A stretch of 64,000 nt of DNA from the NCBI GenBank assembly GCA_041744215.1, contig JBGTLG010000032.1, positions 1 through 64,000 on the forward strand. The letters run 5' to 3'. The DNA is from Fimbriimonadales bacterium (GTDB lineage: Bacteria > Armatimonadota > Fimbriimonadia > Fimbriimonadales > ATM1). Below the pieces are notes generated by a model. The model did no database searches. It worked only from the letters and a program-made list of their open reading frames with translations, and was not told where the DNA came from. Below, in pieces: positions 874 to 36,931 of the stretch (its first letter is position 1; each line of letters begins with the position of its first letter). The position numbers were made by a program, and so were the translations under genes.

Positions 874-892
874 CTGTGATATGCCTCGTCGA

Positions 893-1645: not shown

Positions 1646-1660
1646 CCGTGATCTCTCTAC

Positions 1661-2830: not shown

Positions 2831-2918
2831 CCGTCCTCCAATCCATGATGGATCAAGCCATCATATCTGTCCCCCAGGTTACCCGTGAACAGGGGGCACT
2901 TGCGCGTCGCGAACTAAG

Positions 2919-2944
2919 GACGAAGGAGGAGTCCCGGTTGGTTC
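2919..2944 (-). promoter_or_regulatory. ECF-sigma-type promoter GAAC-N18-CGTC upstream of pilM, inside an inverted repeat (2922-2953)
   Basis: Minus strand GAGAAC caaccgggactcctcctt CGTC; motif recurs at four other intergenic sites. Confidence 0.55.
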
Positions 2945-2984
2945 TCCTCCTTCTGTCATTTTTTGGGCGATTTTCGCCTCAGTT

Positions 2985-5900
2985 CTAGTTGCCGACGACT
3001 GTTGGTCCGAGCTTCGGCGCGAGGGATATGTAGTAGATGTCTCGGGAGCCAGCGCGCGTGCTGGTGAAGAAGAACCACACCAGGCCAGTACGAAGGTTTG
3101 CGGGGTCATCGAACATGTCGGGGGACGCCGAGACGCTGTCTTCGTCTACGGCTTGCTCGATTGGCACAGGCTGCTCGACGAGTTCTGACTGCCAGATCAC
3201 CGGGGCCGTGACGTTCGAGAACTGGAGGACTCCGTTATCGTCGCGATATCCGAAGTTCACCGTAACGATCTGCCCCTCGTCCACGACGTCGAAGTAGATA
3301 TTGCCTCTTGCTGGGTCGACTTGGTAGAACGCGCCCGTCATTCCAGCGACGCTCACGTTGGCAACTCCATTGGTGACCGCTATTGGGCCTCCCGTTTGCA
3401 CGGTGAGCCTCTGAGTCTTCATGTACGGCCGCTTGGCTTGGCCGGGGCCGGTCGCCGCCCGCTCGTAGAAGTGCCACATTCGTGAGACTCGCGGGGTCGC
3501 TCCCGGAGGAATCGGCACGTTGCCAGAGGTCATATAGAAGTTGCGATTCCAGTCGAATCGCCGATCGAGGAACGAACTCGGGTTGGTGTGCCCGCCCGTT
3601 GCTCCAAGTTCACTGATCCGAAGGATGCGCGGTGTGTACCGGATCTCGAGTGCCATGTTTGCCAGCGGCGGTTGGCTCGAGAACCGAATCACGCCGGTGT
3701 GCGGATCGAAGTAGATTTTGCCACCCAGCTGGCTGTCGGCCGAGATAACGCCGGTCGCTTCATCGATCGTCCTGCTCGCCGGGATATCGATGCGAACTGG
3801 CGCCTGATTGGGACGCCTGATCCACGCTTCGACCGGTCGACGGGCGTTCCAGTTAACGCCGCGGGTTCTGAATGTGCCATCGGCCTGGCGGAATGCGGAC
3901 TCTCTGTCGCGCTCGGGCTGCTCAATCAGATTGCGGAGCCGGCCTACTCCGTCAGTCACCCAGCCGCCATAGTAGATTTCAGGCTGAGCCGCGTCTCTGA
4001 GGAGACCGGTGAAGACGATGTCGATGCGCGTCGCTCCCACCCCGTCGCGCTCGATGGGAGTTGGAGCCCAGGTTTCGGCGAAACCCGCACCCGGATCGAC
4101 CGGGATGTTGGGCGACCAGTTCGCGGTTTGGTCACCGGAGCCTCCACCTGGGTTCAGCCGAGCGTTGTGGAACATCATCGACTTGCCATTCATGCTTGTG
4201 TGCCAGAACGCGACGAGTCCGGAAGCACCAAACGCCATCGGTCGTATCCGCTTCTTTTCAAGGTCGACGTTGGTTACCAGCCAAGACGGGCTGGCAACTT
4301 GCGGTGTGCCACCACCAGGCTGTACGGTGTATGGCGCGTAGAACAGCCGGTGCTCGCGCTTCGGTGCGGCTCCAGCATCCTTTACGGCTGTACCGCTCCA
4401 GAACACGAAGCTGTTCACAGTTTGGTTGGGCCCTGTCGGCCTGGTGTTCACCAGGAAGGACGGGTCGCTGTAGTTGGGCGTACCGACGACGACCCCGGGA
4501 GTTCCAGCGAAAAGCGTTGAGCCTGGCTCGGTGGGCATCGGCCCGGCGAACGGGTCCCAAAGCCTTGTCTGGCTGGTAGGTGTCCAGCCCATCAGGTCGC
4601 GCAACGGGCTCACACCGCCGATTTGAGAGGGGCCAATCCCAGCAAACGTTCCAAAGAACAGGTTCCAGTTGTCGACTGGCTGGCTAACTGCAGGCGAATT
4701 CGCAACTTGCGGTCGGTTCGCCATCCACGCCATGTGGAGATTGCCGAGACCATCTCGGAAGCCACTTGGCGCGGTGTTCGTCCACGTAAAGTTGCTCGGC
4801 GCAATCGTTGCGTCGATGTGCTCAGCCGTCCCTGTCGTGCGGCCTCCAGTGAGCCTCGATTCGCGGACCAGGAACTTGACGAGCATGGTCGGATCGGAGA
4901 ACGCCTCAAGCGGGAGACCATTGACGTCGATGGCAAGCGCGCGGTCGTTTTGCCCGCCCACGAGCCAGCTGTCTTCGATAACGTTGATTCGCCGAGAGTG
5001 CTCTCCAACCGGGAATCCCGGCGGGATCGCAACGCCAATCACAGGTCTGCTGTCGGGAGCAGGAGTGACGCCATAAGGAACGTCCGGCACGGTCATTCGG
5101 GTCGGGAATCGATCGCCGACGCGCGCCTTGTGGAGTGTTGCACGCGGATTGCCGCTCGCATCCAGCGCTCCGAGATTCGGAGCGTATGGCGGGTTGATGT
5201 TTGTGACGATATTCGGGAATCCATCGAGCCACGCGAGCGGGTCGTTTGCATCTGCGACGAATCCGACCGACAAGTAGTTCGGGCCTGGATACTGAGCGAC
5301 ACGAGTCGCGACACGCAGGTCAAGCAAGTTGACGTTGCCTTCGTTGTGCACCGTGAACGGCTGGAAGAAGTTTCTGAACGGCGTACCAGTGGAGATGTCC
5401 GGTATGAACAGGTTGCCTGGCGCATAAGGAGATGCCGTTGTGTATCCGAGGCTGTGCGGCAGCGCGCCGAGATCAACGGTCGGCTCTGCAATCGAGATGT
5501 TTTCGTCTACCGGCACGGAACCGCCGACAATCAAATCGCGATAGGCTTCCCTTCTCTGGACCGAGGGCGGCCCCGCCAGGGTTGACTCAAGACCGTCTGG
5601 GCGGCCGTTGTTGTTTGAGTCGACGAACAGGATTGCCTGGGATCGATAGCCACCGTTTAGCGTCTCACCCGAGGCATCTACAAACTGAGTCAGGTTCGGC
5701 GGCTGGTAGCGCTCTACGCTGAGCGTGAACTGGAACGGCACGCCTTGGATCTCGCGAACCAGCGGGTTATTCGGGTCGAAGTTGACCGGCGGCCGAAGCT
5801 GAGCTGGCGTCAATAGCGGATTTCGGGCAACGCCGAATGGATCCGCCACCAAGCCGAGATTGGATCGGTCGATATCGGGATAGTCAAGGCTGAGGTTCGG

Positions 5901-8900
5901 AATCTCGAATGGCAGCTGCTCCCAAGCAGGAACGTACGGCAACGGCTTGATGACGGCCGCTGCGCCGCCTTGCCAAACGGCGTCTCCTCGGATCATCCGT
6001 ACATTCGAGAGTCCTTGTCCGGTGAGCTCAAGGATTCGACTTCTGTCACCCACGAAGAAGTTCGTATTGCCGCTCTGCCCGTGGACCACTTGTCCGGCCG
6101 AACTCATGAGGGCCTTTCCGGGCAAGGACCCATTGAGCAAGTTCTCAGGATCGTTGGGCGTGGTCGTCCAGCCCATGGACTTGTTCGCCGGTGGAGTGCC
6201 TATGTAGCTGGTTGCAGTCGTGAACGTAATCGGGTTCGCGACTGTGACTAAGCGGGCGTCTACGAATGGCGGATTGAAGACCCGACCTTGATCGATCACT
6301 TCGATATCGACTCGAATCTGATCGCCCGGAGTGAAGAAGTTGTTGCCGGTAGCGTTGATGGGAATGCCTGCGACGGCGAAGCCGCTGCCCGGATTGCCGG
6401 GGGTTGCGCCAGCGACAAGCTCGGCGGGCCGATCCACGCGGATGTTCAGTCCGCCGGGCCCACGGACAGTGAACCGAATTGTCGGCGCGGGGTCCGGTGG
6501 CGCGGGGAATTCGAAGTCGTACGCCAGGATGTACATCGTCTCGCCCCACTCAAGCGCGGGGATCGTTGGAGGCGGGAAGAGATCTGGGATCGTCACCGGG
6601 TCGCCGACAGGCGGTGACTGGCGTAGGTTCTCGTAGTTCGGCCTCGAGATGAACTTAAACTTTATGTTGTCGTAGCCAGGGATCGGGTCGTCAGGGGTCG
6701 CGATTTGCTGACCTGGCGGCGTTGGGAATCCGGGATCGTTGGAAATCGTCCCGCCTGTCGAGAACGCGTACAAGTAGCCGTCTGTCCCTGCGTGGTACAG
6801 CCAACCATATGCGGCCGACGGGGATGCGAAGATGCTCTCGCCTCGGGACTGCCATCCCCAAGCAAGGCGGGTCCCCGCGCTGTTTTGGTGTGCCGGGTTC
6901 GCATACATGGCGAGGAACTGCCCCGCGTTCGTTCCGAAGGTCACGAGCGGGAAGGCTGCTCCGAGCCCGGATGGAACGAACTGCGTGAAGTACGGAGAGC
7001 TCTGGATTCCGGTTTGGATTTCAGGGGAATCGAAAAGCATCGTTCCGTCGGTCGCCTGCAGTCCATAGTAATGCCCGTTGTCATTGACAAAGAACACCAT
7101 GTCTGTGGGGGGGGCAGGCAAGCCGAGCCGCGCGATCGGCACGTACGCGACGGACGTGTATGTAAACGGAAAGAGTCCTGCAGCCGGCGGGTTCGGGAAC
7201 GTCCAGTTGGCTCCTGCCGCACCGGAGTTGTTCACGTCGCGCGCATAGACTCGACCATCAAACGACGGGAAGATGACTCTGCCACCACCTACCGTCGGTG
7301 TTGACGAGAGTGCTCCAACCGGAATGTCCGTCAACGCGGGCCATGCCCAATTCAGCGTTGTTTGCTGATTGCCGCTTCCAGTTGCATCAAGTGCGAAGAT
7401 TCGGCCTTCAGTTCCGGCGGCAAAAATCTGATTTGTCGCAGGGTCATACGCGACCGATGCAACGAAAGCTGGGCGCGCTGCCTCAAGCGTCACCACTCCT
7501 CCAGCAAAAGACGCGCGTGGCCATGTCCATTCTCGGCGCGCTGTACCGATCAATCCGGTGGTGGTGTCGTAATCGCCCCGGCCTTCACAATCAATAGCAT
7601 AGACGCGTCCGTTCGTTGACGCGATGAACAAGATGTCGCGTCCTCCAATGTTGTGAACCAGCATTGAAGATGCGCTAAACGAACCCGGCAACGGGATGCG
7701 ATTGCCTTCGGGTCCGTCGACAGCATCGTTCGGGTCTCTCCAGCTTGGATCGTTGACGTCGGGGATGGAGGGATAGGACCAATACACCGTCGTTCCGCCC
7801 GATCCATTACCGCGTGCATCGATACAATAGATTCTTCCGTCCTCGGCAGCGACGAACACGACCTCTGTAGGTTGGAGCGTCGTGTCGGAACGCCGAATGT
7901 TCACGTTTGCAATCGTTGGAGTCGCGTAGATTGCGGCGGTGTTTCGACCGACGAACATCACAGCATCGGCTGCAACGCGACGGCCTGCGTCTCCGGGGTT
8001 GTTGCTGTAGTTCCAAACTTGGACCTCGAGCCCGCCTGAGAGTGGATCATTTCGATAGGATCGCGTTCCGATGCGAACCCACTGGCCGCCAAGGCTGTCT
8101 TGGTCGACAAAGAATTCGTGTTGCGTTCCGTTCTCGTTGATGATGTAACGCGCGGCGCGCGCCTGCAAGACGCCTCCCCCGCTGGGCGGGAACCATACAT
8201 AGACATCAAAGAGATTGTCTTCGGCGATGGTTGGAGTCCAGCGCGCTACGGCGCCGCCCGGATAAATCAATGAGACTGGAGCATCGGCGTAGTCGGTTCC
8301 GAAGAAACCTGGAGCCGCTGGAACGGCCGGATTTGTCCAGCCGGGATCCGCGTTAAAGACTGGGTTTGAGTTGTCGTAAACGAGATTCGCGTTCGTTACG
8401 AGCGATGGCGCCCAGGTCCACCTTTGGAGGCTTGCGTTGGGGTTAGCAGCGTCGGACCAAAGACCGTAGACTCTGCCGTTCTGGATTTCGAGCGATCCAT
8501 CGGGATCGGTCGGATCGACTCGCGATTCGTTTCGGGCAGATACTACGATGGAGTCGAACGGATTCGGGCCGACGTTTCGGACGACTGGCGACGCAAAGAT
8601 CGAGCCTGGACTTGGAACGCCAAGCGCAGAGTCAGCGGCGACAATGTGATTGGGAACAGGGCCCATCAGCTGATCTTGATCGTCTCGCGGGACTGTGTTG
8701 TAAAGCGTGATTGTGATCTGGCCCGTCGGGCCTGAGTTGAAGATTCGATCTTGCGTACCGAGATTGCGCCCGATTCGCGCCCAGTAACCACCGCCCTGGT
8801 GAGGAACGATGTCTGTAAAAGTTTGTCCTGTTCCAAAACCAACTCGGTAGACTGCAAAGTTACTATTCGGTATCAGCACTCCGCCTGCTCGAGTTCCGCT

Positions 8901-9347
8901 TGTTGGGAACCAGACGTACACCGCGTAATTCGTGTTTGGCGTTCCGGTCAGTGTCCATTGCGCCGTTGCGGTTGCGCCTGCTGTCGGATCATTTGTGTTG
9001 GCGGTGCTTGGAACGACAAAAGCGTATCGGTATGGATTCGCGCCGCTGCCTCTCCAATCTGGTGATTCGTCGACGGGTGACGGTGTGAACCAAGCTCCGG
9101 TTGGCTCTGCATAACCTGCTCCGACGTTGTCGATTGTGATGTCTGCGCCTACGGTGCTTTGGAGAGGGTGCCACCATCTTAGGTTTGCGAAACCAGGTCC
9201 CGGATCGGTCGGACTTGGGTTGAGACCCTGTCGTTCGTTGTTGCCTCTGTGCGTTTGGCTGGGGCCCTGCGCAAAGGCAGCGCCGACGAGCGCTGATAGC
9301 GCGATCGTCGCCACTGCTGTCAATACTATGTTCTTTGTTCGGCTCAT
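2985..9347 (-). CDS. Giant secreted protein (2120 aa): two golvesin/xanthan-lyase-C-like domains, PQQ-like beta-propeller; candidate PilY1-like adhesin
   Basis: Signal peptide ending AFA. Two A-x-W-T...VYVWFP...GG-x-W-x-RIG...VAAD repeats; repeated DGRIY/NGRVY/EGRIF/DGYLY blades; DSNNNGRPD Ca-loop; follows the minor pilins. Confidence 0.8.
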   Translation of the reverse strand: MSRTKNIVLTAVATIALSALVGAAFAQGPSQTHRGNNERQGLNPSPTDPGPGFANLRWWHPLQSTVGADITIDNVGAGYAEPTGAWFTPSPVDESPDWRGSGANPYRYAFVVPSTANTNDPTAGATATAQWTLTGTPNTNYAVYVWFPTSGTRAGGVLIPNSNFAVYRVGFGTGQTFTDIVPHQGGGYWARIGRNLGTQDRIFNSGPTGQITITLYNTVPRDDQDQLMGPVPNHIVAADSALGVPSPGSIFASPVVRNVGPNPFDSIVVSARNESRVDPTDPDGSLEIQNGRVYGLWSDAANPNASLQRWTWAPSLVTNANLVYDNSNPVFNADPGWTNPAVPAAPGFFGTDYADAPVSLIYPGGAVARWTPTIAEDNLFDVYVWFPPSGGGVLQARAARYIINENGTQHEFFVDQDSLGGQWVRIGTRSYRNDPLSGGLEVQVWNYSNNPGDAGRRVAADAVMFVGRNTAAIYATPTIANVNIRRSDTTLQPTEVVFVAAEDGRIYCIDARGNGSGGTTVYWSYPSIPDVNDPSWRDPNDAVDGPEGNRIPLPGSFSASSMLVHNIGGRDILFIASTNGRVYAIDCEGRGDYDTTTGLIGTARREWTWPRASFAGGVVTLEAARPAFVASVAYDPATNQIFAAGTEGRIFALDATGSGNQQTTLNWAWPALTDIPVGALSSTPTVGGGRVIFPSFDGRVYARDVNNSGAAGANWTFPNPPAAGLFPFTYTSVAYVPIARLGLPAPPTDMVFFVNDNGHYYGLQATDGTMLFDSPEIQTGIQSSPYFTQFVPSGLGAAFPLVTFGTNAGQFLAMYANPAHQNSAGTRLAWGWQSRGESIFASPSAAYGWLYHAGTDGYLYAFSTGGTISNDPGFPTPPGQQIATPDDPIPGYDNIKFKFISRPNYENLRQSPPVGDPVTIPDLFPPPTIPALEWGETMYILAYDFEFPAPPDPAPTIRFTVRGPGGLNIRVDRPAELVAGATPGNPGSGFAVAGIPINATGNNFFTPGDQIRVDIEVIDQGRVFNPPFVDARLVTVANPITFTTATSYIGTPPANKSMGWTTTPNDPENLLNGSLPGKALMSSAGQVVHGQSGNTNFFVGDRSRILELTGQGLSNVRMIRGDAVWQGGAAAVIKPLPYVPAWEQLPFEIPNLSLDYPDIDRSNLGLVADPFGVARNPLLTPAQLRPPVNFDPNNPLVREIQGVPFQFTLSVERYQPPNLTQFVDASGETLNGGYRSQAILFVDSNNNGRPDGLESTLAGPPSVQRREAYRDLIVGGSVPVDENISIAEPTVDLGALPHSLGYTTASPYAPGNLFIPDISTGTPFRNFFQPFTVHNEGNVNLLDLRVATRVAQYPGPNYLSVGFVADANDPLAWLDGFPNIVTNINPPYAPNLGALDASGNPRATLHKARVGDRFPTRMTVPDVPYGVTPAPDSRPVIGVAIPPGFPVGEHSRRINVIEDSWLVGGQNDRALAIDVNGLPLEAFSDPTMLVKFLVRESRLTGGRTTGTAEHIDATIAPSNFTWTNTAPSGFRDGLGNLHMAWMANRPQVANSPAVSQPVDNWNLFFGTFAGIGPSQIGGVSPLRDLMGWTPTSQTRLWDPFAGPMPTEPGSTLFAGTPGVVVGTPNYSDPSFLVNTRPTGPNQTVNSFVFWSGTAVKDAGAAPKREHRLFYAPYTVQPGGGTPQVASPSWLVTNVDLEKKRIRPMAFGASGLVAFWHTSMNGKSMMFHNARLNPGGGSGDQTANWSPNIPVDPGAGFAETWAPTPIERDGVGATRIDIVFTGLLRDAAQPEIYYGGWVTDGVGRLRNLIEQPERDRESAFRQADGTFRTRGVNWNARRPVEAWIRRPNQAPVRIDIPASRTIDEATGVISADSQLGGKIYFDPHTGVIRFSSQPPLANMALEIRYTPRILRISELGATGGHTNPSSFLDRRFDWNRNFYMTSGNVPIPPGATPRVSRMWHFYERAATGPGQAKRPYMKTQRLTVQTGGPIAVTNGVANVSVAGMTGAFYQVDPARGNIYFDVVDEGQIVTVNFGYRDDNGVLQFSNVTAPVIWQSELVEQPVPIEQAVDEDSVSASPDMFDDPANLRTGLVWFFFTSTRAGSRDIYYISLAPKLGPTVVGN

Positions 9348-9365
9348 GGTCTCGTTCTCGTCCTT

Positions 9366-13928: not shown

Positions 13929-16837
13929 GGATTCACCTCTCCGAAGTAGAACAACTTCGTGCCCACAGGCAGTTTTGGCATCGGCGGCAGTTCTCGGCCA
14001 TAGCCATCGACTCGTATTGATGCCGACAGCGTTGGATCGAAGGATCCACCGACGCGCCCAGTAACCAACACCGGATCGTAGTTTATGAATAGATTTGGAA
14101 CGTAGGTCGCCGAGTTACTCGGGTTGTGCTGATTAGGAATACGAATTCCGGAACCCCCGTATTCGACGGGCATCCATCCCCACTTGCGCAGCCACTCGGA
14201 TTGGTCTGCCATAGATGCTGGGAAATTCTCGCTCACGCTTCCAACGATGTTGATCCGGATGTTGAGGGGTTCGCCATAGAAGGGGAAGTCGGGAGCTGCT
14301 CCGAACTGTTGGAATCGCTCATCTTCAGTTGTAAAGGCGTCGCGCCGATCGTTCGGATTCCAATTGAACCACGGTCCCGGCAGCACGTAGAATGAACCCT
14401 CTTGAGCGTAGACCATTGCCTCAATCCTGACGTCGTAGGGTTGGATCGAGAACCGGCTTACGGCGAGATCGTGCTGCCCGCCATTTGGCGAAATAGTGTT
14501 ATCCAGTTTAAGTTGGAACTCGTTCTCCGATCCTTCGACGAAGAGCGAATAACTGCCGTGGCCGGCGATCGGGAAGAACTGATGCGCGCGCTTTTCGAAA
14601 CTCGGCAGAATCTGGAATGTGTATCCGAGGCCGTATGTTGGGATCGGATCTTGTGCCGGATAGAAAGGTGCGGCAGCATTCGGCGGATTGAGCGCAGCGA
14701 ACAGGTATTCGGGGCTTGCGAATCCGACCGGATTGATCAGCAGGTTGAAGAACGAGGCTCCCGCTTGCGATGAGTTGCCTCCAGCGAGCGCAAGGAACAA
14801 CGCAGGATAAAGTTGATCTCCGCCGTTGGGGAACTGATAGCCTTGCATGTAAGATTGCCCAGTGATCGGATCAATCACGAACTGTGCCGACAGACTTAAT
14901 GGATTTGCAGCCGTCGTCGGCATGAAGTAAGGATTGTCTGGGCTCGTGCCGAAACGGGCAAAGCTGTTCGGACTCGAGTCAAACTGGTTGGTGAACAAAT
15001 GCGTCGTGTTTAGGACAGCGTTTTGCCGCGCTAGGATTGCAAGTGTTGAAAATTCTGTTGATTTGGTGATGCTGCCCTCAAGAAAGGCGTTCGCCATCGA
15101 GACGACTGTTATCTGGGCATCGGTGGGGATCACTCCGCGGACCCTGACATTCCCTTCCAATAGAATCACGCCGTTGAAGTTTCGGCCTTGATCGAAGTCG
15201 TTTGTTGTAGGTGTGGCAAAGTTGACGACGCCCGGCGTCAGCTCATTGATGACGTGGACGATTCCGTCGTTTCCATAACCAAGTTTGAAAGTTAAGCTAT
15301 GGCGGTTTGTGTTTGCGCCAACGTAATCTCTCCAGGTGTCCGGTGTGCCGCCACTCGGCGTTCGTTGCTCGCGCGTTATGACGAACCCACCCAACTCGGG
15401 AGTCGCCTGATTTCGCTCTGCGAAGAATTGGATATGCGAGGCGCGAGGCGTAAAGAAGGGTCCGTTCCACGCGCCCGAGTTCGCATTGTTCGGATTCATG
15501 ATGTCGTATCGCAATGAGCGATCGCCATCTTCAGAGTCATCGTAAACGTCACTTCGATTATCGACGTAGACACCGCGTCCGTAACCGAGTCTCCCAAGAT
15601 TGAATTGAGAACCTGGAGGGCCGACGAGCGTGCCGCTGTCGCGAGTCGCGAGTCGGTATCTGAGCTGCTGCGTATTCGGATCGACCTCGTCGACGAGCGG
15701 CGGATCCTTCTTGGGGACACTTCGTGCATATCCGCTCGGGTCAGCTTGTTCGCGGATATCGCGCAACACGCCGCCCGCAGTTGTGAAATTGGGGTCGATG
15801 CTCGGCAACGCCAGAACTGGCGTGTTTACTTCGCTTCCCGCTTGCGCGCTAATGCGGTTCACCAGCAGCGAACTGGACGGACCAGAAAATCTAAGATCGC
15901 CGTAGATATTGATTTGATCGCCAAGATCGGTGTGCAAGAAGACTTGCACGTCACCATGGATGAGCAAGTCGCCATTCGCATAAATCGGACCACCGAGCGT
16001 GATTATGTTTCCGGGATAAAGCCCTATGGGAGTTGGCGCAGGGAATCCGCCGATGAGCATCGGAACTTGCACGTTCGTTCCGTTGTAGTTGCCGCCAAAG
16101 TTGTCGGGAATACCGAGTTCGATTGGCGCCGTGCGGTTATCTTTGTTCGAAATGTAGCGCGCAGACTCCATTGTTCCGATCGACGCGATCGCTGTCAGTT
16201 GGCGAGCGCGCTGCAGGTTTGGCTCGCGCGCCGATGTCGGGTCCAAGGCGTTGAATTCGCCCGGACGTCCCACGGAATCGATGATTGTGTAGGCTCGAAG
16301 CTTCGCAGGCTGTGCGAGAGGTGTTGCGAGTCCGCCTGTGAAGAGGGAGATTCCACTCGGAGCAAACCGGACTCGAATGAGTGCACGGCCGTTGCGATAG
16401 TTAATGCGTGTGTATGCCCCGAGGCCATCGGGGCCGCCTCTGTCAAACGGATCGTTGACGACAGGGTCGACTTGTCTGCGGAGCCAGAAAAAATCGGGAT
16501 CAGGATTTGTAGCGGCCGGGTTCTCGGGATCTGAGTTCGGGCCGAGCCCTGGAGGCCGCAGAGGATCGACATCGGCCGGGACCGGCGTTGGAGGTTGCGG
16601 TCTCCAGTCTGCGCCGTCTTCTGAGAAGCGAAGCTGGGCAAACGAGTAGCGAACGCCTGCTTTCGAAAGTTCGTTCGCGACAGCCGCCTGCGATCCGGAA
16701 AGCGCTGTGGCTGTAGAGCCAGCGACAATGCGAATAAACACGAGGCCAAGAATGCCGAGGATGAACATGATCGCGAGTGAAACGACCAAGATCGTGCCGC
16801 GCTCCGTTCTGCTGTTTCTCATCGAATTCACTCTCAT
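13925..16837 (-). CDS. Giant PilX/GspK-like minor pilin (970 aa)
   Basis: ERG|TILVVSLAIMFILGIL class III signal lacking Glu5 (PilX/GspK hallmark); A-x-ELSKAGV helix; alternative start 16822. Confidence 0.8.
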   Translation of the reverse strand: MRVNSMRNSRTERGTILVVSLAIMFILGILGLVFIRIVAGSTATALSGSQAAVANELSKAGVRYSFAQLRFSEDGADWRPQPPTPVPADVDPLRPPGLGPNSDPENPAATNPDPDFFWLRRQVDPVVNDPFDRGGPDGLGAYTRINYRNGRALIRVRFAPSGISLFTGGLATPLAQPAKLRAYTIIDSVGRPGEFNALDPTSAREPNLQRARQLTAIASIGTMESARYISNKDNRTAPIELGIPDNFGGNYNGTNVQVPMLIGGFPAPTPIGLYPGNIITLGGPIYANGDLLIHGDVQVFLHTDLGDQINIYGDLRFSGPSSSLLVNRISAQAGSEVNTPVLALPSIDPNFTTAGGVLRDIREQADPSGYARSVPKKDPPLVDEVDPNTQQLRYRLATRDSGTLVGPPGSQFNLGRLGYGRGVYVDNRSDVYDDSEDGDRSLRYDIMNPNNANSGAWNGPFFTPRASHIQFFAERNQATPELGGFVITREQRTPSGGTPDTWRDYVGANTNRHSLTFKLGYGNDGIVHVINELTPGVVNFATPTTNDFDQGRNFNGVILLEGNVRVRGVIPTDAQITVVSMANAFLEGSITKSTEFSTLAILARQNAVLNTTHLFTNQFDSSPNSFARFGTSPDNPYFMPTTAANPLSLSAQFVIDPITGQSYMQGYQFPNGGDQLYPALFLALAGGNSSQAGASFFNLLINPVGFASPEYLFAALNPPNAAAPFYPAQDPIPTYGLGYTFQILPSFEKRAHQFFPIAGHGSYSLFVEGSENEFQLKLDNTISPNGGQHDLAVSRFSIQPYDVRIEAMVYAQEGSFYVLPGPWFNWNPNDRRDAFTTEDERFQQFGAAPDFPFYGEPLNIRINIVGSVSENFPASMADQSEWLRKWGWMPVEYGGSGIRIPNQHNPSNSATYVPNLFINYDPVLVTGRVGGSFDPTLSASIRVDGYGRELPPMPKLPVGTKLFYFGEVNP

Positions 16838-16842
16838 CTGCT

Positions 16843-18891
16843 CTACCTAATGAAGTTCCTTACAGAGATGACCTCTTTGACGGTCACTGCCTGCGCTGAA
16901 GCGCCCGACGAACCCGGGAACCTCCGGAGGGTCATTTCGACTGCGATGCGCTGTGCGCTGTCGTAATCCACCGTCATAACGTCGGTGGATTCATTCAATT
17001 GGAAGTCAAACTCGACCAAGATGTTCCCGTTGGGGGAGAGTGCGAGCGCTGGGTCGCTGTTGAACTCAACATAACCTTTCCTGTATCTCGGTTCGATGTA
17101 TGTTCGAACGTCAGCGTTGCCAGCGGGGTCTGGAAGTCCGATGATTGTCCAGTCGGGATCGGGAAGATCGGTGTAGTTGATCTTGTATTGGTTCAATCCT
17201 GGCGTGGAACTGGCTGAGACTCGGGTGTATCGTATCGGTTGGCCGAAGTTGGGGCCAGGTCGCTGGTCCGGCGCGACGATGATTTCAGAGCCTGGGACAA
17301 TGCGACCATCTAGCGCGTACCCCAGTCCGTTGGGCGCGAGAGGATTGAACCAGTTGCCCCCGCCGCCGCTCACTTGCCGCAGGTCGAAGAACCTGCGCGA
17401 AAGCTGCCCTTGCGGGTCGAACGATTGCCCAGTTGGCGATGCGATCCATCCGGTGTAAGTCGCGTTCACAGAGTCTGTCGAGGTCGCCGGGACCAAGCCG
17501 AGCGCGTGAAGCACCGGGAACGACATCACAACTCTTCCCCGCCTGGAATCTACTTTGAAGAGTCTCAGTTCGTTTAGCGGGGCGCCGCCAACGACGTAAT
17601 CGCCGATCAGCGGATTTCCTTGCTCGGCTGCGAGCATATAGCCGCCGATATTGAAGAAAATGTCGCCTTGCGTGTATTCGTCGGTGTTCGCGACCGGGTC
17701 GAAGTAGACGAGTTCCTGATTGAACTGCTCGAATACATTTGCGCCGCTTGATAGTTGACGCCACCTTGCGATGAAGTACGGTCCGCCAAGCTGCGGATTC
17801 GTCACGAAGAAGCGAACCAAACTGTCCTGAGTCCACCCGATCATGTCGGTGACGTAGTATTCAGGCGCGCCCCGGCGCACCGCATCCACGGCTTCGACTC
17901 CAGGCCGAACGACGTCGTTGGCCGATCCCGGCTCATTGTTGACTCGCAGAGCCTCGAACGAAATCAGAGAGCGGACACGCGGGATATAAGTGCCAGCTGT
18001 CGGTGGATACTGCTCATAAACTGCGAGCCCCGTTGATTCGTCGACTTGCGGGATGATGAAGTCAGTGCGAAGATCTTGGCTGACAATCGTCGCGATGTTC
18101 TTCCAGTTTTGCGCACGTGTTTGGTGGGCCGGAAGGTTATCGAAAAACTGATACGGATCGCGCACGAAGAAGCCGGGGTCATTGATGACTGGCGCACCGT
18201 TTGCGTCGAGCGCAAAGAAAGCGGAGTTGCCGACGTAGCGACCGAGGGCCGCATCGTAAACCCAGGGTTGAATCTCTGCCCGGTAAAGAACAAACAGATT
18301 TTCAAACCCGATCTTTGCGCCAAAGATCACAGGATCCCAGGCGTTGATATAGCGACGACCAGGCTCTTTCAACCCGATGAAGTAGCGGACGAGCGTTTGG
18401 CCAGGCGCAACGGGAACCGTGATCTGGCCAATGGGTCCTTGGAGTGTCGGATCGAACTTGCCCCGGTACGGATTGAAGTACGTGCCGCTCGCATCGCGAG
18501 CGCCCGGATCGCCCTTGGCGGCCGGAATCAAGTCAATCTTCGCATAAGACATATATATGCTGCCAACGCGGGCAGCGGGGTCTTCTGAGATCTCTGTCGA
18601 GGTCGCTGGAGGGGCGCCAGCTCCAGAAAAAACGCCCAGCGGAAGCTGCACTTCAATCGCAGCGCTATTCACTGAGTTGTCGAGCACCGCAGCCGCGGAA
18701 CCCATCTCTTTGCTGATGCGATCCATGATGTTGCGTGCACGGTCTTGGGCTTCTGCGTACGCCTGTCCCGTTCGCGTAAGTCTGAAGCCTTGGATCAGCG
18801 GAAGCGCGAGAAGCGTGAGCAAGACTGCTGTGATCGCTAAGACCACGAGCAACTCGATCAACGTAAAGCCTTTGTGAATTGTCTTCGTCAT
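16843..18891 (-). CDS. Giant PilW-like minor pilin (~682 aa)
   Basis: HKG|FTLIELLVVLAI prepilin motif; AQDRARNIMDRISKEM PilW-like helix; GAGG RBS before ATG 18891. Confidence 0.85.
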   Translation of the reverse strand: MTKTIHKGFTLIELLVVLAITAVLLTLLALPLIQGFRLTRTGQAYAEAQDRARNIMDRISKEMGSAAAVLDNSVNSAAIEVQLPLGVFSGAGAPPATSTEISEDPAARVGSIYMSYAKIDLIPAAKGDPGARDASGTYFNPYRGKFDPTLQGPIGQITVPVAPGQTLVRYFIGLKEPGRRYINAWDPVIFGAKIGFENLFVLYRAEIQPWVYDAALGRYVGNSAFFALDANGAPVINDPGFFVRDPYQFFDNLPAHQTRAQNWKNIATIVSQDLRTDFIIPQVDESTGLAVYEQYPPTAGTYIPRVRSLISFEALRVNNEPGSANDVVRPGVEAVDAVRRGAPEYYVTDMIGWTQDSLVRFFVTNPQLGGPYFIARWRQLSSGANVFEQFNQELVYFDPVANTDEYTQGDIFFNIGGYMLAAEQGNPLIGDYVVGGAPLNELRLFKVDSRRGRVVMSFPVLHALGLVPATSTDSVNATYTGWIASPTGQSFDPQGQLSRRFFDLRQVSGGGGNWFNPLAPNGLGYALDGRIVPGSEIIVAPDQRPGPNFGQPIRYTRVSASSTPGLNQYKINYTDLPDPDWTIIGLPDPAGNADVRTYIEPRYRKGYVEFNSDPALALSPNGNILVEFDFQLNESTDVMTVDYDSAQRIAVEMTLRRFPGSSGASAQAVTVKEVISVRNFIR

Positions 18892-18901
18892 GATCTTATC
18901 C

Positions 18902-20932
18902 TCAGTTCCCGTCACGCCTCGTCAAATAGGTTTCAACTGGAACGGAGCGCCACTGCTGTGTCCAATTCTCGTGGAGTCGCAATCGTTCTGCAAGAGCTGC
19001 GGGAGTGTTGCCCGGCACATCTTCTTTCGTTGACGAATTCCAAATGACTCGTGCTCGCAACGACGTGCCGCTGATGCCTCGCACCGCGTAACCGTACGTC
19101 GCGTAATCGAGGAAAGACGCGTTCAGGTCGATATCCCTGATGTCGATGAAGCCGTAGTTTGTGTTAGGAAATGGATCGCCGGCGCGAATGGGTCGCACCA
19201 TGAAATCTTGATCGCGAATCACGCGGATGTTGTTCGCGCCATCCCGATACCAGAGCTCGCGCACAGCGACCTTGCTGCCGATATCCGCGGGCGGGAAGTA
19301 GATGCGGGTTGCGAGGCCGATGCCATCCACCGGGTTCCATGCGTACGCCTGACCCACGGAGAGCGGCAACCCAAAGATCACGCTGTAACGACTTGGCGAT
19401 TTGAAAACTTGGACTGCCCAGTCGTTGTGAGCTTGATAGAAGACTCTGAAGTTCCGTCCTGCAGGATCGACTCCGAGAATCGGCAGTTGGCCTGTTCCCA
19501 CAGGCAAAATCGTGAGGCCGAGCTGACTCAGTTCAGGATCGTTTGAGCCCGGTCCGGCGAGCGCAACCGTGCCGCGAAGGTAGTCGACTTTGTAAGAACG
19601 TCCCTGCGAAGGGTCTGTAGGATCCACGAATGGGAGTACCACTCCTCCGGTATCCATGTCGACGAGCAGCACGTCTTGTGTCGTCGTGAATCCGCCCAAG
19701 CCATCCGGAATCGGAAAGTCGAGACCCCGGTGCCGTCGGTTGTCGTTCTCAATCGAGTCGAACGATTTCAACCTTTCGAGAGGAAGCTTGTGAAGTGTTG
19801 CGCGTGGGCCAAGGTTGAGCACGCCTCGGTCGCCGCGAAAATCATCGCGCAAGATGTGCCAGTTGTAAACGTCGTAGTTGACAAGCGCGCGCAGTGGCTG
19901 GCGATTGCCGCGACGCCGTTCGACGTAATCGTATCCCGCGGGGTTGAACAAGATCATTCCGAGCGTCGGGCTTAGCAGTTTGTACTCGTATGGATACGCG
20001 GGCGTGAAGCCGGCAGCGTCTGGCAGTCGATCAAAGAGCCGATTGCACTCGACGGAGAAGTCGACCATTTCGATCCAATCAGCAGGATTCCCCGCGGCGG
20101 CGCGCATATCGAACGGATACACTTCGTTGTTCGCGGAATCGTAAAACGCTTCGAGCGGGTTGCCGCCCATCGGTGTTTCGGTGACCGTCAGCACCATATC
20201 GATCACGTCGACTTTGCGATAACCGTAGGTGGGGTCATTCGCCCAATAGGAGAAGTTAACTCTAAAGCTAACAGCGCGCCCCGGGGTACCGGGCAGCCAG
20301 ATTTGGCTGTTGTCTTCGTCGTGCCTAAACTGCCAGAAATCGAAGTTTCGAATCGGATCGCCAATATCCCGGAAGACTCTGCGCCCCTCCATTGCATTGC
20401 CGTAGACTAGGAGAAGGCTTGGGTTGTCGACAATGGGACCGAAATTGAGCGTTCGAAGACCGCCGAAGTAACTGCCGACTGGCCTCGGAGCGGGAATCTT
20501 TCCTCCCTCTCCAATGACTCTGCGGAATCGGTTGGCATCGTTGTAGTAGCGATAGAAGATTTCGGTATCCGTTCCGCCCGGGTTCGTGATAACGATGTTG
20601 CCGTTCTCAAGCATGACGCTATCGCCGGGGCCGAGATCGTCTTGGCGCGAGTCAGGATCGGAAACGATTTGCAGCACCCAACTGCCACCGATAAACTGGT
20701 AAACGTAGCGCACCGCGAGGATTTGCTCAGGCAGATCGGCGGCTTGGGCCTCTAGTCTTTCGACCTCTCCGCGTGCGAGTCGCTGTGCCGTCGCGTACTC
20801 TCCGGTTACGCGCAACGAAACGAATCCACGCGGGTAGATGCGAATGACCGTCAAGATGCCGACCGCCAAAATGACGATCGTTACTAACACCTCGATGAGG
20901 CTGAATGCTCGTCGTAGCTTCTGCCTATTCAT
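18902..20932 (-). CDS. Giant PilV-like minor pilin (~676 aa)
   Basis: RRA|FSLIEVLVTIVILAVGIL; A-x-x-LARGEVERL PilV-like helix; alternative start 20992. Confidence 0.85.
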   Translation of the reverse strand: MNRQKLRRAFSLIEVLVTIVILAVGILTVIRIYPRGFVSLRVTGEYATAQRLARGEVERLEAQAADLPEQILAVRYVYQFIGGSWVLQIVSDPDSRQDDLGPGDSVMLENGNIVITNPGGTDTEIFYRYYNDANRFRRVIGEGGKIPAPRPVGSYFGGLRTLNFGPIVDNPSLLLVYGNAMEGRRVFRDIGDPIRNFDFWQFRHDEDNSQIWLPGTPGRAVSFRVNFSYWANDPTYGYRKVDVIDMVLTVTETPMGGNPLEAFYDSANNEVYPFDMRAAAGNPADWIEMVDFSVECNRLFDRLPDAAGFTPAYPYEYKLLSPTLGMILFNPAGYDYVERRRGNRQPLRALVNYDVYNWHILRDDFRGDRGVLNLGPRATLHKLPLERLKSFDSIENDNRRHRGLDFPIPDGLGGFTTTQDVLLVDMDTGGVVLPFVDPTDPSQGRSYKVDYLRGTVALAGPGSNDPELSQLGLTILPVGTGQLPILGVDPAGRNFRVFYQAHNDWAVQVFKSPSRYSVIFGLPLSVGQAYAWNPVDGIGLATRIYFPPADIGSKVAVRELWYRDGANNIRVIRDQDFMVRPIRAGDPFPNTNYGFIDIRDIDLNASFLDYATYGYAVRGISGTSLRARVIWNSSTKEDVPGNTPAALAERLRLHENWTQQWRSVPVETYLTRRDGN

Positions 20933-20998
20933 GGTCTGCTGCACTCCTGCTCGTATCCGGCCTACTCGTGTAGACAGAAAATCGTTGGTCATCGACCC

Positions 20999-21805
20999 CT
21001 ACTGTCCTACCGCGAAAGATCTTTCGTATACGTCGACCGAGTCCACACTGCGCACGTTGCCGCTCAGGTAGAGGACGATGTCAGTTCGCTCTCGCAGGGG
21101 AATCGGTGAGGGTCCTTGAGAATATCGACGGTAGTAAGTGTTCCAGGTCACGACCGTCGTGTCTGCGGGCGGGTCGTTGTAGCCGAGTTGCCTTTTGTCG
21201 TCGTTGGGTCCGCCGCCAAGTTGTCCTTCTTGGGTCCAGAACAAAATGTAGCGAAGCTCGAATCTTGGCTGCGCGCCGAAGCATCCAGCTCCGCGTACTG
21301 GCTGAATGTCCATCGAATCAAACGCGTAGAACCGAACCGGGTCGGTAACTGCGTCTCCATTGATCGCGATTGGGTTGACCCCAAGGTGCTCGTAAGTGAC
21401 GACCGTTGCGGGGCCGAACGCCTGAATTGGGTTTTGGCTATTGCTGGGCCAGCACGCTGCGACCTGGAGGGTCCTCGTGCTCTGATTCAAAACCGAGGTG
21501 AAGGACTCGGAGTCCTTGAGTCGGCTCGGAAAGAGGTAGGCCCTCTTGAGCTGGTTGACGCTCCGGTCCTGGTTGAGGACGGGGTCGTACTCCGCGCAAT
21601 TGAGGAGCATCGGCGGGAAACCGCCTTGGTCATTGCGGTACGCGAGGAGTGCCTGGCTGACCGAGGACATCCTGCTGATGTCCGTCGTTCGCTTGGCCGC
21701 TACCTTTGCACGTGCGAATACCGGAAAAAGAATAGCCGTCAAGATCGCGATGATCGCGATCACGGTGAGTAGCTCAACGAGCGTAAAACCAACTCTGCGC
21801 TTCAT
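20999..21805 (-). CDS. Prepilin-type N-methylation domain protein (268 aa)
   Basis: RVG|FTLVELLTVIAIIAILTAILFPVFARAK; GGAGG RBS. Confidence 0.9.
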   Translation of the reverse strand: MKRRVGFTLVELLTVIAIIAILTAILFPVFARAKVAAKRTTDISRMSSVSQALLAYRNDQGGFPPMLLNCAEYDPVLNQDRSVNQLKRAYLFPSRLKDSESFTSVLNQSTRTLQVAACWPSNSQNPIQAFGPATVVTYEHLGVNPIAINGDAVTDPVRFYAFDSMDIQPVRGAGCFGAQPRFELRYILFWTQEGQLGGGPNDDKRQLGYNDPPADTTVVTWNTYYRRYSQGPSPIPLRERTDIVLYLSGNVRSVDSVDVYERSFAVGQ

Positions 21806-30797: not shown

Positions 30798-30950
30798 GAA
30801 AGCAGTGTATCAAAAAAAAGTACTGACGTTACCCAGTATATGTACCGGTTTTTGTCTTGCCCAGAGTATCCTCGGCTGCGGTGCCTTTCTCCCCGCCCAT
30901 TCCACTGGCCGAGCACGCCGGAGCTTCGTTTCGTCTATGCTTATGCCACC

Positions 30951-36917: not shown

Positions 36918-36931
36918 GCTTGGAAGCTGGG

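Follow-up and report, generated by a model that had tools for sequence, protein, structure and literature searches.

Our analysis of 64,000 nucleotides from a Fimbriimonadales bacterium (the window: contig JBGTLG010000032.1 of assembly GCA_041744215.1, positions 1 to 64,000) identifies six adjacent genes that form one conserved unit throughout the phylum Armatimonadota, not a local oddity, and that probably build an oversized, sticky pilus tip. We consider it reasonably likely that this block is the enlarged priming and tip module of an Armatimonadota type IVa pilus, with two giant proteins carried on the cap.

The six open reading frames (268, 696, 690, 970, 1520 and 2120 aa, here p268 to p2120) are co-directional and tightly packed on the minus strand, between pilB-pilT-pilC-pilD upstream and pilM-pilN-pilO downstream, all on the same strand (Table 1). 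Their coordinates give, in order, a gap of 6 nt, an overlap of 14, a gap of 5, an overlap of 4 (GTGA) and a gap of 18, and these spacings and the flanking domains confirm the preliminary description of six close or overlapping genes between pilD and pilMNO; the summed length of 6264 aa likewise bears out its estimate of about 6,200 aa. The names pilB, pilT, pilC, pilN and pilO derive from the translations and from full-length BLASTP alignments to syntenic genes, the gene in the pilN position having no Pfam or NCBIfam match above cut-off. In the two relatives examined (G010 and G040), the operon continues beyond pilO with an ORF of 265-310 aa, an STN-domain protein and a secretin, and the matching secretin of the present genome sits at a contig end (C33:178344-180002). 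A type IVa machine set is present, comprising PilM-PilN-PilO, a pilT within the operon and the secretin orthologue elsewhere in the genome, and the block lies inside such an operon and follows the minor-pilin blueprint that had been proposed for it. The genome holds four PilB/GspE-like ORFs including the operon copy, further pilT paralogues and two secretins besides the pilus-operon orthologue, so that cross-use of parts is possible. BLASTP of the genome with pilD found only pilD itself. Two short pilins encoded elsewhere in the genome are candidate major pilins.

Table 1. Genes and protein regions of the pilus operon, in positions of the window.
Feature	Coordinates	Strand	Basis
pilB-type extension ATPase, 593 aa	25498..27279	-	translation; 69-78% identity to relatives' syntenic genes
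pilT-type retraction ATPase, 396 aa	24277..25467	-	translation; 69-73% identity to relatives' syntenic genes
pilC platform protein, 408 aa	23039..24265	-	translation, BLASTP to syntenic genes
pilD prepilin peptidase, 340 aa	21869..22891	-	PF06750 6.5e-32, PF01478 1.1e-11
p268	20999..21805	-	268-aa prepilin ORF
p696	18902..20992	-	696-aa pilin-like ORF
p690	16843..18915	-	690-aa pilin-like ORF
p970	13925..16837	-	970-aa pilin-like ORF
p970 residues 15-71, predicted long N-terminal pilin helix (57 residues)	16625..16795	-	DSSP on model
p970 residues ~219-932, predicted beta-solenoid with inserted beta-sandwich (~610-800)	14042..16183	-	aligned ranges, ComZ/ice-binding proteins
p970 residues 942-970, conserved C-terminal tail with predicted last beta-strand	13928..14014	-	model, alignments
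p1520	9366..13928	-	1520-aa ORF with Sec-type leader
p1520 residues 403-412, D-L-D-G-D-G-x-x-D-D loop, candidate calcium site	12693..12722	-	conservation
p2120	2985..9347	-	2120-aa ORF with Sec-type leader
p2120 residues 325-466, Golvesin_C	7950..8375	-	PF25275 1.4e-19; in 12/19 orthologues
p2120 residues 601-769, PQQ/BamB-type propeller blades	7041..7547	-	PF13360 (PQQ_2) 6.2e-9; in 11/19 orthologues
p2120 residues ~1440-2115, predicted six-bladed sialidase-like propeller with large inserts	3003..5030	-	model
pilM, 389 aa	1661..2830	-	TIGR01175 2.5e-55, PF11104 5.2e-43
pilN-position gene, 250 aa	893..1645	-	position; 55% identity to syntenic gene of G010
pilO-position gene, cut by contig start	1..873	-	ORF list, BLASTP to syntenic genes

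The block is single-copy in this genome by BLASTP, and the conserved synteny that the preliminary description had named as a check extends well beyond it. Of 80 related loci, 63 show the identical six-gene order; one or more of the genes are absent from the remaining 17, many of which are short or end inside a gene, and there are no breaks in order. All ten genomes of the same order keep the six genes in sequence, the p690-p970-p1520 order recurs in 10/10 genomes from other Armatimonadota families (nine of which also have a p2120-like gene), and the p970 profile matches 199 of the 201 genomes of the phylum. In 11 of the 61 loci with enough upstream DNA, pilD does not precede the block and the six genes nonetheless stay together; in one genome (G035), all six are flanked by a gene for an MFS transporter on one side and by genes for ABC-2 transporters on the other.

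The first three proteins carry standard prepilin signals, each matching the N_methyl model above its 21.2-bit cut-off (p268, 4.9e-6; p696, 9.9e-6; p690, 6.6e-7), and the motifs previously named for the four pilins are all visible in the translations: VG/FTLVE, RRA/FSLIE, KG/FTLIE and RG/TILVV, the slash marking the end of the leader. The probable start of p696 is Met21 (nt 20932), giving 676 aa, with Ala at position -1, a site at which Gly prevails among the orthologues, while an alternative start at Met9 of p690 gives 682 aa; if the later start is used, the p696/p690 overlap of 14 becomes a gap of 10. The N-termini of all 55 p268 orthologues match the GspG, Myxococcus PilA and ComGC models, and the p268 profile finds the helices of major pilins in the PDB (7tgg, 7.7e-19; GspG 5wda, 5.3e-14), in each case the helix only. 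From its sequence, then, p268 appears to have a helix of the major-pilin/GspG type and may be either a fibre subunit or a connector between tip and fibre, and is not clearly the FimU that the canonical gene order had led the preliminary description to expect. The N-terminus of p696 matches the PilV model TIGR02523 (3e-6 across residues 30-84), as do those of 57/67 of its orthologues, and hhalign places it on E. coli GspI with a probability of 75% over 54 N-terminal columns, which suggests a giant PilV/GspI-class minor pilin. Orthologues of p690 match HpsC (21/55, best 6.1e-10, in the N-terminal helix region and under the curated cut-off) and, also N-terminally, ComGF (11/55); p690 is thus a putative giant PilW/GspJ/HpsC-class minor pilin, its class being assigned mainly from position. 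Verru_Chthon models are matched by both sets (B in 12/67 p696 orthologues, C and D each in 36/55 p690 orthologues), at the N-terminus only and far below the curated cut-offs (51-256 bits, where 16-26 bits were scored). Profile searches of the PDB returned no match for the globular parts of p696 and p690, their pilin matches being limited to the helix, and at about 680 aa both are far larger than E. coli GspI (125 aa) and GspJ (195 aa).

The fourth protein, p970, has Val at position +5, which confirms the earlier statement that it lacks Glu5; the consensus of its orthologues is G-Q-T-L-I-I-A. No Pfam or NCBIfam family, PilX_N, GspK and (if it is modeled there) HpsA included, matches it at E up to 0.1; hhalign gives a probability of 1% against E. 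coli GspK, and a profile search of the PDB detects no sequence similarity to ComZ. Structure prediction is more informative. The AlphaFold2 model (pLDDT 86.8, pTM 0.88) contains a pilin helix followed by strands and a beta-solenoid, and its best structural match is ComZ (6qvi_A; Z 13.1, rmsd 4.3, 272 residues aligned), followed by ice-binding beta-solenoids (Z 10.4-11.4) and, weakly and spanning residues 42-970, by GspK (3ci0_K, Z 5.5) and Streptococcus sanguinis PilA (Z 5.4). Since the model is closest to ComZ, we assign p970 from its predicted fold as a PilX/GspK/ComZ-class cap pilin with known relatives. A likeness to CBM35/36/6 modules is a lead only, as Z reaches just 6-6.7. The C-terminal tail is highly conserved, with R942, L950, P954 and P957 invariant across 85 sequences; a strand is modeled at residues 964-966, and ComZ, GspK and S. 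sanguinis PilA all stay aligned with p970 as far as residues 965-970. The last beta-strand of p970 therefore appears, in the model, to return to the pilin sheet and to be supplied in cis.

The two giants that follow begin with Sec-type leaders read by eye, '...AIGAFAQP' in p1520 and '...GAAFAQGP' in p2120. From its sequence, p1520 seems to be Sec-exported and to combine a ThuA/DUF4159-like domain with a propeller region bearing a conserved acidic loop and with a C-terminal NHL-type propeller: DUF4159 matches it at 3.9e-4 and is found in 24 of its 28 orthologues, NHL and PQQ_2 each match 4/28 orthologues, NHL alone matched the p1520 profile in the PDB (E 0.003), and ThuA and PQQ propellers are leads from the Atlas. 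Its extreme C-terminus is conserved (P-x-F-A-D-R). The preliminary description had reported D-x-[DN]-x-[DN]-G loops in the giants; these are present, but as one per protein (residue 403 in p1520, 1243 in p2120) and not several. Because one such site turns up in 12-18% of shuffled sequences, conservation was taken as the criterion, and here the two differ: the six motif positions of p1520 are kept in 23-25 of 28 orthologues, with D411 in 27/28 and D412 in 25/28, and those of p2120 in just 9-14/19.

The propeller blades claimed earlier for both giants are borne out by the NHL and PQQ_2 matches among p1520 orthologues and, in p2120, by the PQQ_2 match and the modeled six-bladed fold. Golvesin_C occupies two stretches of p2120 at a looser Pfam threshold, the better of which is tabulated. 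For residues 1000-2120 (model pLDDT 87.8, pTM 0.80), the best 50 folds are sialidase-like and other six-bladed propellers, all at Z of at least 15; the predicted propeller aligns with 3h6j_A over 316 residues (Z 24.4) and with many sialidases over 314-339 residues (Z 21-24.4, Foldseek E of about 1e-5). GH33 sialidases are marked by Asp-box repeats (S-x-D-x-G-x-T-W) and an F/Y-R-I/V-P motif, and a regular-expression scan of p2120, a loosened pattern included, found neither the Asp-box nor the RIP motif. From one lineage to another p2120 differs greatly in its N-terminal half, total length ranging from 2084 to 3590 aa, and the C-terminal half is still detectable in distant families, whose BLASTP matches cover only residues ~1031 onwards. 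PilY1, too, has a conserved C-terminal and a variable N-terminal part, a likeness that p2120 shares. Homology to PilY1 is nevertheless not supported for either giant: its domain, PF05567, has no match in p1520 or p2120 nor, at E up to 0.1, in any frame of this 93% complete genome, the best 50 folds for the C-terminal half of p2120 do not include PilY1, and the closest of those folds are sialidase-like six-bladed propellers. Of the earlier idea of two PilY1-position proteins, the position after a PilX-class gene stands and the homology is not supported.

Starting from gene content, gene order, conservation and pilin signals, which are observed, and from the predicted ComZ-like fold of p970 and propeller fold of p2120, we infer the protein contacts, the tip location and the ligands as follows. 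PilD would cleave the short leaders of p268, p696 and p690, and in the inner membrane p696, p690 and p970 may assemble an initiation complex in which p970, lacking Glu5, completes the pilin sheet with its own C-terminal strand. This complex would end as the fibre cap, with p268 either building the fibre or linking the cap to one made from a short pilin whose gene lies elsewhere, and the fibre would be extended through the secretin by PilB and retracted by PilT. After Sec export, p1520 and p2120 would fold in the periplasm and either join the cap or ride on it, like PilY1, PilC or MshQ of other pili, and the lectin-like and propeller modules that they might display there would bind polymers or surfaces. 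Position and co-inheritance are the evidence from which we infer the attachment of the giants to the tip. Their layout is also like that of tip adhesins: they follow the PilX-class gene as PilY1 or MshQ does, p2120 pairs a variable N-terminal half with a more lasting C-terminal one, and p1520 has its conserved acidic loop and extreme C-terminus. According to PMC13533445, donation of a strand by the C-terminus is the only mechanism so far shown to hold PilC/PilY1 on the tip. Since the last strand of p970 is predicted to come from p970 itself, the protein would have no need of one donated by a tip adhesin, and anchoring of the giants by strand donation seems not to be expected.

Placing the giants on the tip has a cost, in that a complex of about 6,000 residues would have to pass the secretin, and other fates for these proteins have to be weighed. 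One that we regard as rather unlikely is that the four pilins are the priming complex of a short fibre that expels p1520 and p2120 through the secretin as cargo, in the manner of a T2SS, once Sec export and periplasmic folding are complete; outside they would bind or cleave glycans, either free or loosely attached to the surface. Each begins with a Sec-type leader and lacks a pilin helix, their modules (Golvesin_C, PQQ- and sialidase-like propellers, ThuA/DUF4159-like) are usual in secreted carbohydrate-active proteins, the PilY1 domain is absent, and p970 with its own last strand would need no partner. The operon, however, encodes the type IVa set of PilT and PilM-N-O, not GspL/M, and a separate T2SS-like locus on contig C20 comprises three short pilins together with an ATPase, a platform protein and a secretin; the propeller of p2120 is devoid of the sialidase motifs, and the strict co-inheritance, the 4-nt p970/p1520 overlap and the joint movement away from the machine genes fit one complex better. 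That movement, with the six genes together in the 11 loci where pilD does not precede them, also tells against the improbable alternative that the giants never leave the envelope, being parts of the machine such as a scaffold in the periplasm or outer membrane, a gate or a wall-spanning collar. For such a role speak the place of their genes directly before pilM-N-O, the pyruvyl transferase and DUF5693 genes in the neighbourhood, and the frequency of PQQ/BamB-type and TolB-like propellers in periplasmic envelope proteins (TolB matches the C-terminal propeller of p2120 at Z 18.8), but the variable N-terminus and length of p2120 would be unusual in a fixed machine part and its lectin-like Golvesin_C domains would point outwards. 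More improbable still is an endopilus that mainly exports the cell's own polysaccharide, like cyanobacterial Hps with its enlarged PilX (HpsA), the giants handling the polymer: the HpsC matches among p690 orthologues, the beta-solenoid PilX architecture that p970 shares with HpsA (PMC13759059) and nearby polysaccharide-related genes suggest it, whereas those matches are confined to the helix region and below the curated cut-off, p970 has no NCBIfam match (HpsA included, if it is modeled there), the block contains no glycosyltransferase genes, and PilT is in the operon.

If the block does form the pilus tip, a bolder proposal may be entertained tentatively, namely that these pili end in a hitherto unseen type of machine, an estimated 600-700 kDa in size (from about 6,000 residues), in which a platform of three giant minor pilins carries two multi-propeller proteins docked without strand donation and the whole acts as a retractile grappling device. 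Docking could then occur, for example, onto the beta-solenoid of p970; polysaccharide or other cells would be caught by the lectin-like and sialidase-like modules and reeled in, and Armatimonadota would have in this device an ancestral means of feeding or attachment shared by the whole phylum.

The preliminary description knew of no characterised equivalent, which was too strong, as ComZ, the cyanobacterial PilX/HpsA proteins, MshQ and CpaL are partial precedents. PilY1/PilC and MshQ are likewise large Sec-exported beta-propeller proteins encoded directly after a PilX/PilK-class gene (PMC7541494, PMC13533445), and MshQ illustrates that the PilY1 position can be taken by a protein with no relation to PilY1; CpaL is a partial precedent from the same account (PMC13533445). 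MshQ is a single protein of about 1200 aa, however, against two giants here totalling 3640 aa (PMC13533445). The cyanobacterial FimT-PilW-PilV-PilX proteins form a four-pilin priming set in which the PilX beta-solenoid is proposed to replace the PilY1 cap, with an enlarged PilX subfamily bearing grafted extra domains, PilW proteins with long loops, and HpsA as a beta-solenoid PilX (PMC13759059). Our block resembles this set in its four pilins, its PilX-class protein with a predicted beta-solenoid and the p690 orthologues matching HpsC, whereas PilV/PilW-class proteins of about 680 aa and Sec-exported giant partners are not described in the available portions of that source (PMC13759059). The GspH-I-J-K tip (PDB 3CI0) shares the class order I, J, K, the alignment of p696 to the E. 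coli GspI N-terminus and, in GspK, a K-class protein without Glu5 that carries an inserted domain and provides the last strand itself; yet the similarity lies in the helices only, the GspK match is weak (Z 5.5), and the present operon has PilM-N-O and PilT. The Verru_Chthon cassette of another phylum encodes the uncharacterised prepilin-type proteins B, C and D (TIGR02598, TIGR02599 and TIGR02596) and includes a large protein A, and we know of no experimental data on it. The closest structural match of p970 is ComZ of Thermus thermophilus (PDB 6QVI), a pilin fold interrupted by a large triangular beta-solenoid, which binds DNA, is encoded after the three minor pilins PilA1-PilA3 and is a proposed fibre cap (PMC6561018); p970 shares with it the place after three pilins and, in the model, the beta-solenoid pilin architecture (PMC6561018). 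The solved ComZ chain has 518 residues against the 970 aa of p970, which carries extra inserts. To our knowledge, no giant secreted proteins accompany ComZ at the Thermus locus. What is known, on our reading of the block as a pilus tip, would thus be a kind of tip with relatives such as ComZ, and what is new would be its enlarged, phylum-wide variant in Armatimonadota.

Between pilB-T-C-D and pilM-N-O of this Fimbriimonadales bacterium lies a block of six genes that we favor, with moderate confidence, as the priming and tip module of a type IVa pilus in enlarged form. Its products, named here by their length in residues, are p268, p696, p690, p970 and two giants, p1520 and p2120. From the coordinates, successive genes are spaced by 6 nt, a 14-nt overlap, 5 nt, a 4-nt overlap and 18 nt, and the 14-nt overlap at the p696/p690 junction becomes a 10-nt gap if the 690-residue frame starts at Met9. 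Prepilin leaders with Glu5 are present on p268, p696 and p690, each above the N_methyl cut-off; p970 carries the leader RG|TILVV, without Glu5, and p1520 and p2120 begin with Sec-type leaders, read by eye from the translations. The preliminary description, which proposed giant PilV/W/X-like pilins and two propeller proteins as an oversized pilus tip, was correct on the six ORFs, from their sizes and prepilin leaders to the Glu5-less p970 and the Sec-type leaders of the giants. An artefact of gene calling is ruled out by the long conserved frames and full-length orthologues. In a promoter and terminator scan of nt 1-20000, site numbers were at or below shuffled expectation, and the interval between p2120 and pilM held no terminator-like site on the minus strand. 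Among sequencing runs, no RNA sample was listed for nt 9366-16837, and three DNA runs of one study contain this stretch.

Pilus genes of the window and the six-gene block
Feature	Coordinates	Strand	Remarks
pilB	27279-25498	-	ORF in one long minus-strand gene run
pilT	25467-24277	-	ORF, same minus-strand run as pilB
pilC	24265-23039	-	ORF, same minus-strand run as pilB
pilD	22891-21869	-	PF06750 6.5e-32, firm
Six-ORF block, 268 + 696 + 690 + 970 + 1520 + 2120 aa	21805-2985	-	
pilM	2830-1661	-	TIGR01175 2.5e-55, firm
pilN-position gene	1645-893	-	named by position
pilO-position gene	873-1	-	runs off contig start

The machine belongs to the type with PilM-N-O and PilT. In two relatives (G010 and G040) the operon ends in a secretin, and an orthologous secretin, 57% identical to that of G010, sits at a contig end in the source genome, which also holds a separate T2SS-like locus on another contig. 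The same two relatives encode, between pilO and the STN-domain protein/secretin, a 265-310 aa ORF without a Pfam match (L015 2356-3288 (-); L020 8428-9225 (+)), in the place expected for PilP. The source genome as a whole (2.7 Mb; contigs C15, C20, C33 and C41) contains three secretins, four PilB/GspE-like ATPases, five PilT-like ORFs and 30 N_methyl matches at E <=0.1, 27 of them above the cut-off; two short pilins of ~102-104 mature residues (C41:172111-172455 and C33:139646-140053) are candidates for the fiber subunit. Elsewhere in the window, ~3 kb upstream of pilB and on the same strand, a 248-aa ORF (30067-30813) has the prepilin-like N-terminus ...RA|FTVLDVV..., with Asp instead of Glu at +5 and no Pfam match at E <=1e-5. 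A further minus-strand run (31863-42463) encodes a 454-aa ORF of no family, a 318-aa CarboxypepD_reg protein, 933- and 851-aa ORFs without Pfam matches, a polysaccharide pyruvyl transferase (7.9e-35) and a DUF5693 protein (4.2e-122), and may be a locus for a cell-wall polymer or surface-layer anchoring. On the plus strand, 48418-52957 encodes a clostripain-family peptidase (C11, 4.8e-39) and, after it, a Sortilin-Vps10/BNR-repeat protein of 901 aa.

The block is conserved far beyond the source genome. From 254 candidate stretches with 171 confirmed matches we kept 80 loci which, by the record labels that define the taxonomy of all relatives here, are Armatimonadota, mostly Fimbriimonadales, and include records labelled only 'bacterium', several 'Chthonomonas sp.' and one 'Methanoregulaceae archaeon'. 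This last locus (L071) carries the full bacterial block with pilB-T-C-D and is probably a mis-binned contig. The named matches are MAGs. The synteny survey that the preliminary description had suggested confirmed the arrangement: 63 of the 80 loci have all six genes in the same order, the remaining 17, many of them short or ending inside a gene, miss one or more block genes, and none of the 80 breaks the order. All ten genomes sampled from the taxonomic order share the arrangement as well. Among related genomes, p970 is matched in 38 of 41 (a tally that includes the unpublished G011), including all 36 of good quality, and the three misses are genomes 65-78% complete; in a sample spanning the phylum, its profile matches 199 of 201 genomes (E from 0 to ~1e-7). 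In ten genomes, one from each of ten other Armatimonadota families, p690-p970-p1520 is always retained, and a p2120-like final gene of 2170-3590 aa is found in nine. The members vary in detail: a 936-aa ORF without similarity replaces the sixth gene in G169 (L114-L115), the p1520 gene is split into two ORFs (1135 + 579 aa) in G199 (L120-L121), where the last gene reaches 3425 aa, and the p1520 orthologue has 2433 aa in L051 and 2240 aa in L098. Where 1.5 kb or more of upstream DNA is available (61 loci), pilD does not precede the block in 11, and in G035 an MFS transporter gene lies on one side of it and ABC-2 transporter genes on the other. The block therefore moves as a whole, separately from the machine genes. 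The block is single-copy in the source genome, and this, with the phylum-wide vertical pattern, rules out a recent local expansion or a mobile element. Among 1.84 billion proteins, without taxon labels, the p970 profile found 1093 representative clusters at E <=1e-3, and in a search prefiltered by shared words the named relatives of p970 and p1520 were all from Armatimonadota and 'hypothetical' apart from two generic pseudopilin labels. Given this lack of labels and this prefiltering, we grade confinement to Armatimonadota only as likely.

The three proteins with Glu5 are recognizable through their N-terminal helices. The full helix of p268 is of the major-pilin type: all 55 orthologues match GspG, Myxococcus PilA and ComGC, its profile finds pilin helices in the PDB (best 7.7e-19), and its N-terminus resembles several paralogues of 210-370 aa in the source genome. 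In L030 (G031; 3679-6230) and in L118 (G061) the block follows a tandem pair of p268-like genes, which would fit p268 as a fiber or connector subunit able to duplicate. The N-terminus of p696 is of the PilV/GspI type (TIGR02523, 3e-6; 57 of 67 orthologues match), and hhalign aligned it with E. coli GspI over 54 columns at 75% probability; across the profiles of p696, p690 and p970, comparison with E. coli K-12 GspI, GspJ and GspK gave helix-only or no similarity. The 55 orthologues of p690 match HpsC (21), Verru_Chthon C (36), Verru_Chthon D (36) and ComGF (11) at their N-termini, and p690 is assigned to the PilW/GspJ place mainly by gene order. Beyond the helix, p690 and p696 resemble nothing known by sequence, as PDB profile searches match the pilin helix only. 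What is unusual about both is their size: they continue for ~650 residues after it, whereas E. coli GspI and GspJ have 125 and 195 aa in total. An ESM Atlas search with p690 returned its own Armatimonadota clusters and one row from Planctomycetota at 0.87, which we treat as leads.

The largest pilin, p970, can be placed by its predicted fold. In an AlphaFold2 model from 85 sequences (pLDDT 86.8, pTM 0.88), an N-terminal helix of 57 residues leads through a few strands into an extended beta-rich body, and the final strand lies at 964-966. A Foldseek search of the PDB with this model gave no match at E <=1e-3 and a PDB profile search no usable one; solely by an exhaustive aligner, the best match was ComZ of Thermus thermophilus (6qvi_A; Z 13.1, rmsd 4.3 A over 272 residues, model range 159-965), followed by four DUF3494-type ice-binding beta-solenoids (Z 10.4-11.4). 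GspK (Z 5.5) and S. sanguinis PilA (Z 5.4) align from residue 42-43 to 967-970, and a beta-sandwich insert at ~610-800 gives a weak CBM35/36/6-like match (Z 6-6.7) that serves as a lead. ComZ is described as a GspK-like pilin with an ice-binding-protein-like solenoid inserted before its last strand, as in the p970 model, and is argued to fit only at the pilus tip (PMC6561018). Every cyanobacterial PilX homologue, members of the enlarged HpsA subfamily among them, reportedly shares this architecture, and the cyanobacterial beta-solenoid PilX is proposed to substitute for the PilY1 cap (PMC13759059). We therefore predict from the model that p970 is an Armatimonadota member of the beta-solenoid PilX/ComZ class, whose known members come from Deinococcota and Cyanobacteria.

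Both giants contain recognizable domains. No match to the PilY1 family model was found in p1520, p2120 or anywhere in the genome, and phmmer searches of the PDB with both giants gave none. In p1520, a DUF4159/ThuA-like domain near the N-terminus (3.9e-4; 24 of 28 orthologues) is followed by a propeller region with the conserved loop D-L-D-G-D-G-x-x-D-D at residues 403-412, then by NHL-type blades near the C-terminus (4 of 28 orthologues; weak PDB profile match, E 0.003) and by the last residues P-x-F-A-D-R, conserved in most of the phylum. ESM Atlas matches to PQQ propellers and ThuA (0.81-0.83) are leads only. The D-x-[DN]-x-[DN]-G loops of the preliminary description are indeed present in both giants, and the p1520 site is well conserved (23-25 of 28 orthologues), but there is one site per giant, and a single site also occurs in 12-18% of shuffles. 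The N-terminal half of p2120 has a Golvesin_C domain (1.4e-19, best stretch 325-466, with two stretches at a looser threshold; 12 of 19 orthologues) and PQQ/BamB-type blades (6.2e-9; 11 of 19). BLASTP from distant families reaches p2120 only from residue ~1031 onwards; the C-terminal half is therefore detectable in distant families and the N-terminal half variable. A fold prediction for residues 1000-2120 (58 sequences; pLDDT 87.8, pTM 0.80) models ~1440-2115 as a six-bladed propeller with long inserts, and the fold search speaks for this part, residues 1000-1440 being barely covered. The propeller is closest to sialidases and related enzymes (3h6j_A, Z 24.4, 316 residues aligned; many sialidases at Z 21-24), with TolB (Z 18.8) and NHL proteins (~17) next and Foldseek E ~1e-5. 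Since propellers resemble each other widely (619 chains reach Z 8 or more), the match names a fold and not a function. A sequence scan of p2120 found no Asp-box and no RIP motif, and we therefore do not term it a sialidase.

By analogy with GspI-J-K and PilV-W-X, p696, p690 and p970 would form an initiation complex and then stay as the cap; we infer every contact and every ligand of the block proteins. A 2026 study reports that the last strand of the PilK/PilX-class sheet licenses assembly, and that PilC/PilY1 and, in its model, MshQ donate this strand in trans, whereas GspK and CpaL provide it in cis (PMC13533445). The modeled fold and strongly conserved C-terminal tail of p970 would place it in the cis group, like ComZ, and this makes the most straightforward attachment of the giants to the tip less plausible. 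Two complex predictions, made without controls and pairing p970 (40-970) with the C-terminal 45 residues of p1520, each scored 0.00, which counts neither for nor against a contact. Membership of the giants in the pilin complex is supported by their place directly after the PilX-class gene, by the 4-nt p970/p1520 overlap, by a co-inheritance with the pilins that stays strict in loci where the block lies away from the machine genes, and by the division of p2120, as in adhesins, into a variable half and one that can be detected more widely. If the block is a priming and tip module, the case for placing the giants at the tip is about evenly balanced. With their Sec-type leaders, the giants could instead be cargo pushed out through the secretin, which fits the same co-inheritance less well and which we consider unlikely; that they are envelope parts is more doubtful still. 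The least probable reading is polysaccharide export by the whole system in an Hps-like manner; HpsC matches of p690 speak for it and PilT in the operon against it.

Armatimonadota are widespread, with few cultured members. The first complete Fimbriimonadia genome came from a strain with fimbriae, for which its authors thought attachment likely because the strain is non-motile (PMC4072686). Literature on the pili and pilins of Armatimonadota and Fimbriimonadales, judged by title and the start of the abstract, contained nothing about these genes. In the literature searched, supplements aside (which might list such genes), we found no description of PilV/PilW-class subunits of ~680 aa, of two Sec-exported multi-propeller proteins, 3640 aa together, co-inherited with pilins, or of a 19-kb module conserved over a whole phylum. 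Previously 'hypothetical' genes can be read as a conserved ~19-kb six-gene minor-pilin set of the phylum's type IVa pilus, and two families of giant secreted proteins, unannotated so far and inherited along with the pilins, are now defined. If the giants do sit on the tip, they would represent a new class of pilus adhesin, a test of the maximum load of a secretin-dependent pilus, and a test of whether strand donation is the sole way to hold a tip protein. With the predicted fold of p970, the beta-solenoid cap class of Thermus ComZ and cyanobacterial PilX/HpsA reaches a third phylum. The view that the system has no characterized equivalent is too strong: p970, the key subunit, has close structural precedents, and MshQ and CpaL already show large non-PilY1 proteins acting at pilus tips (PMC13533445).
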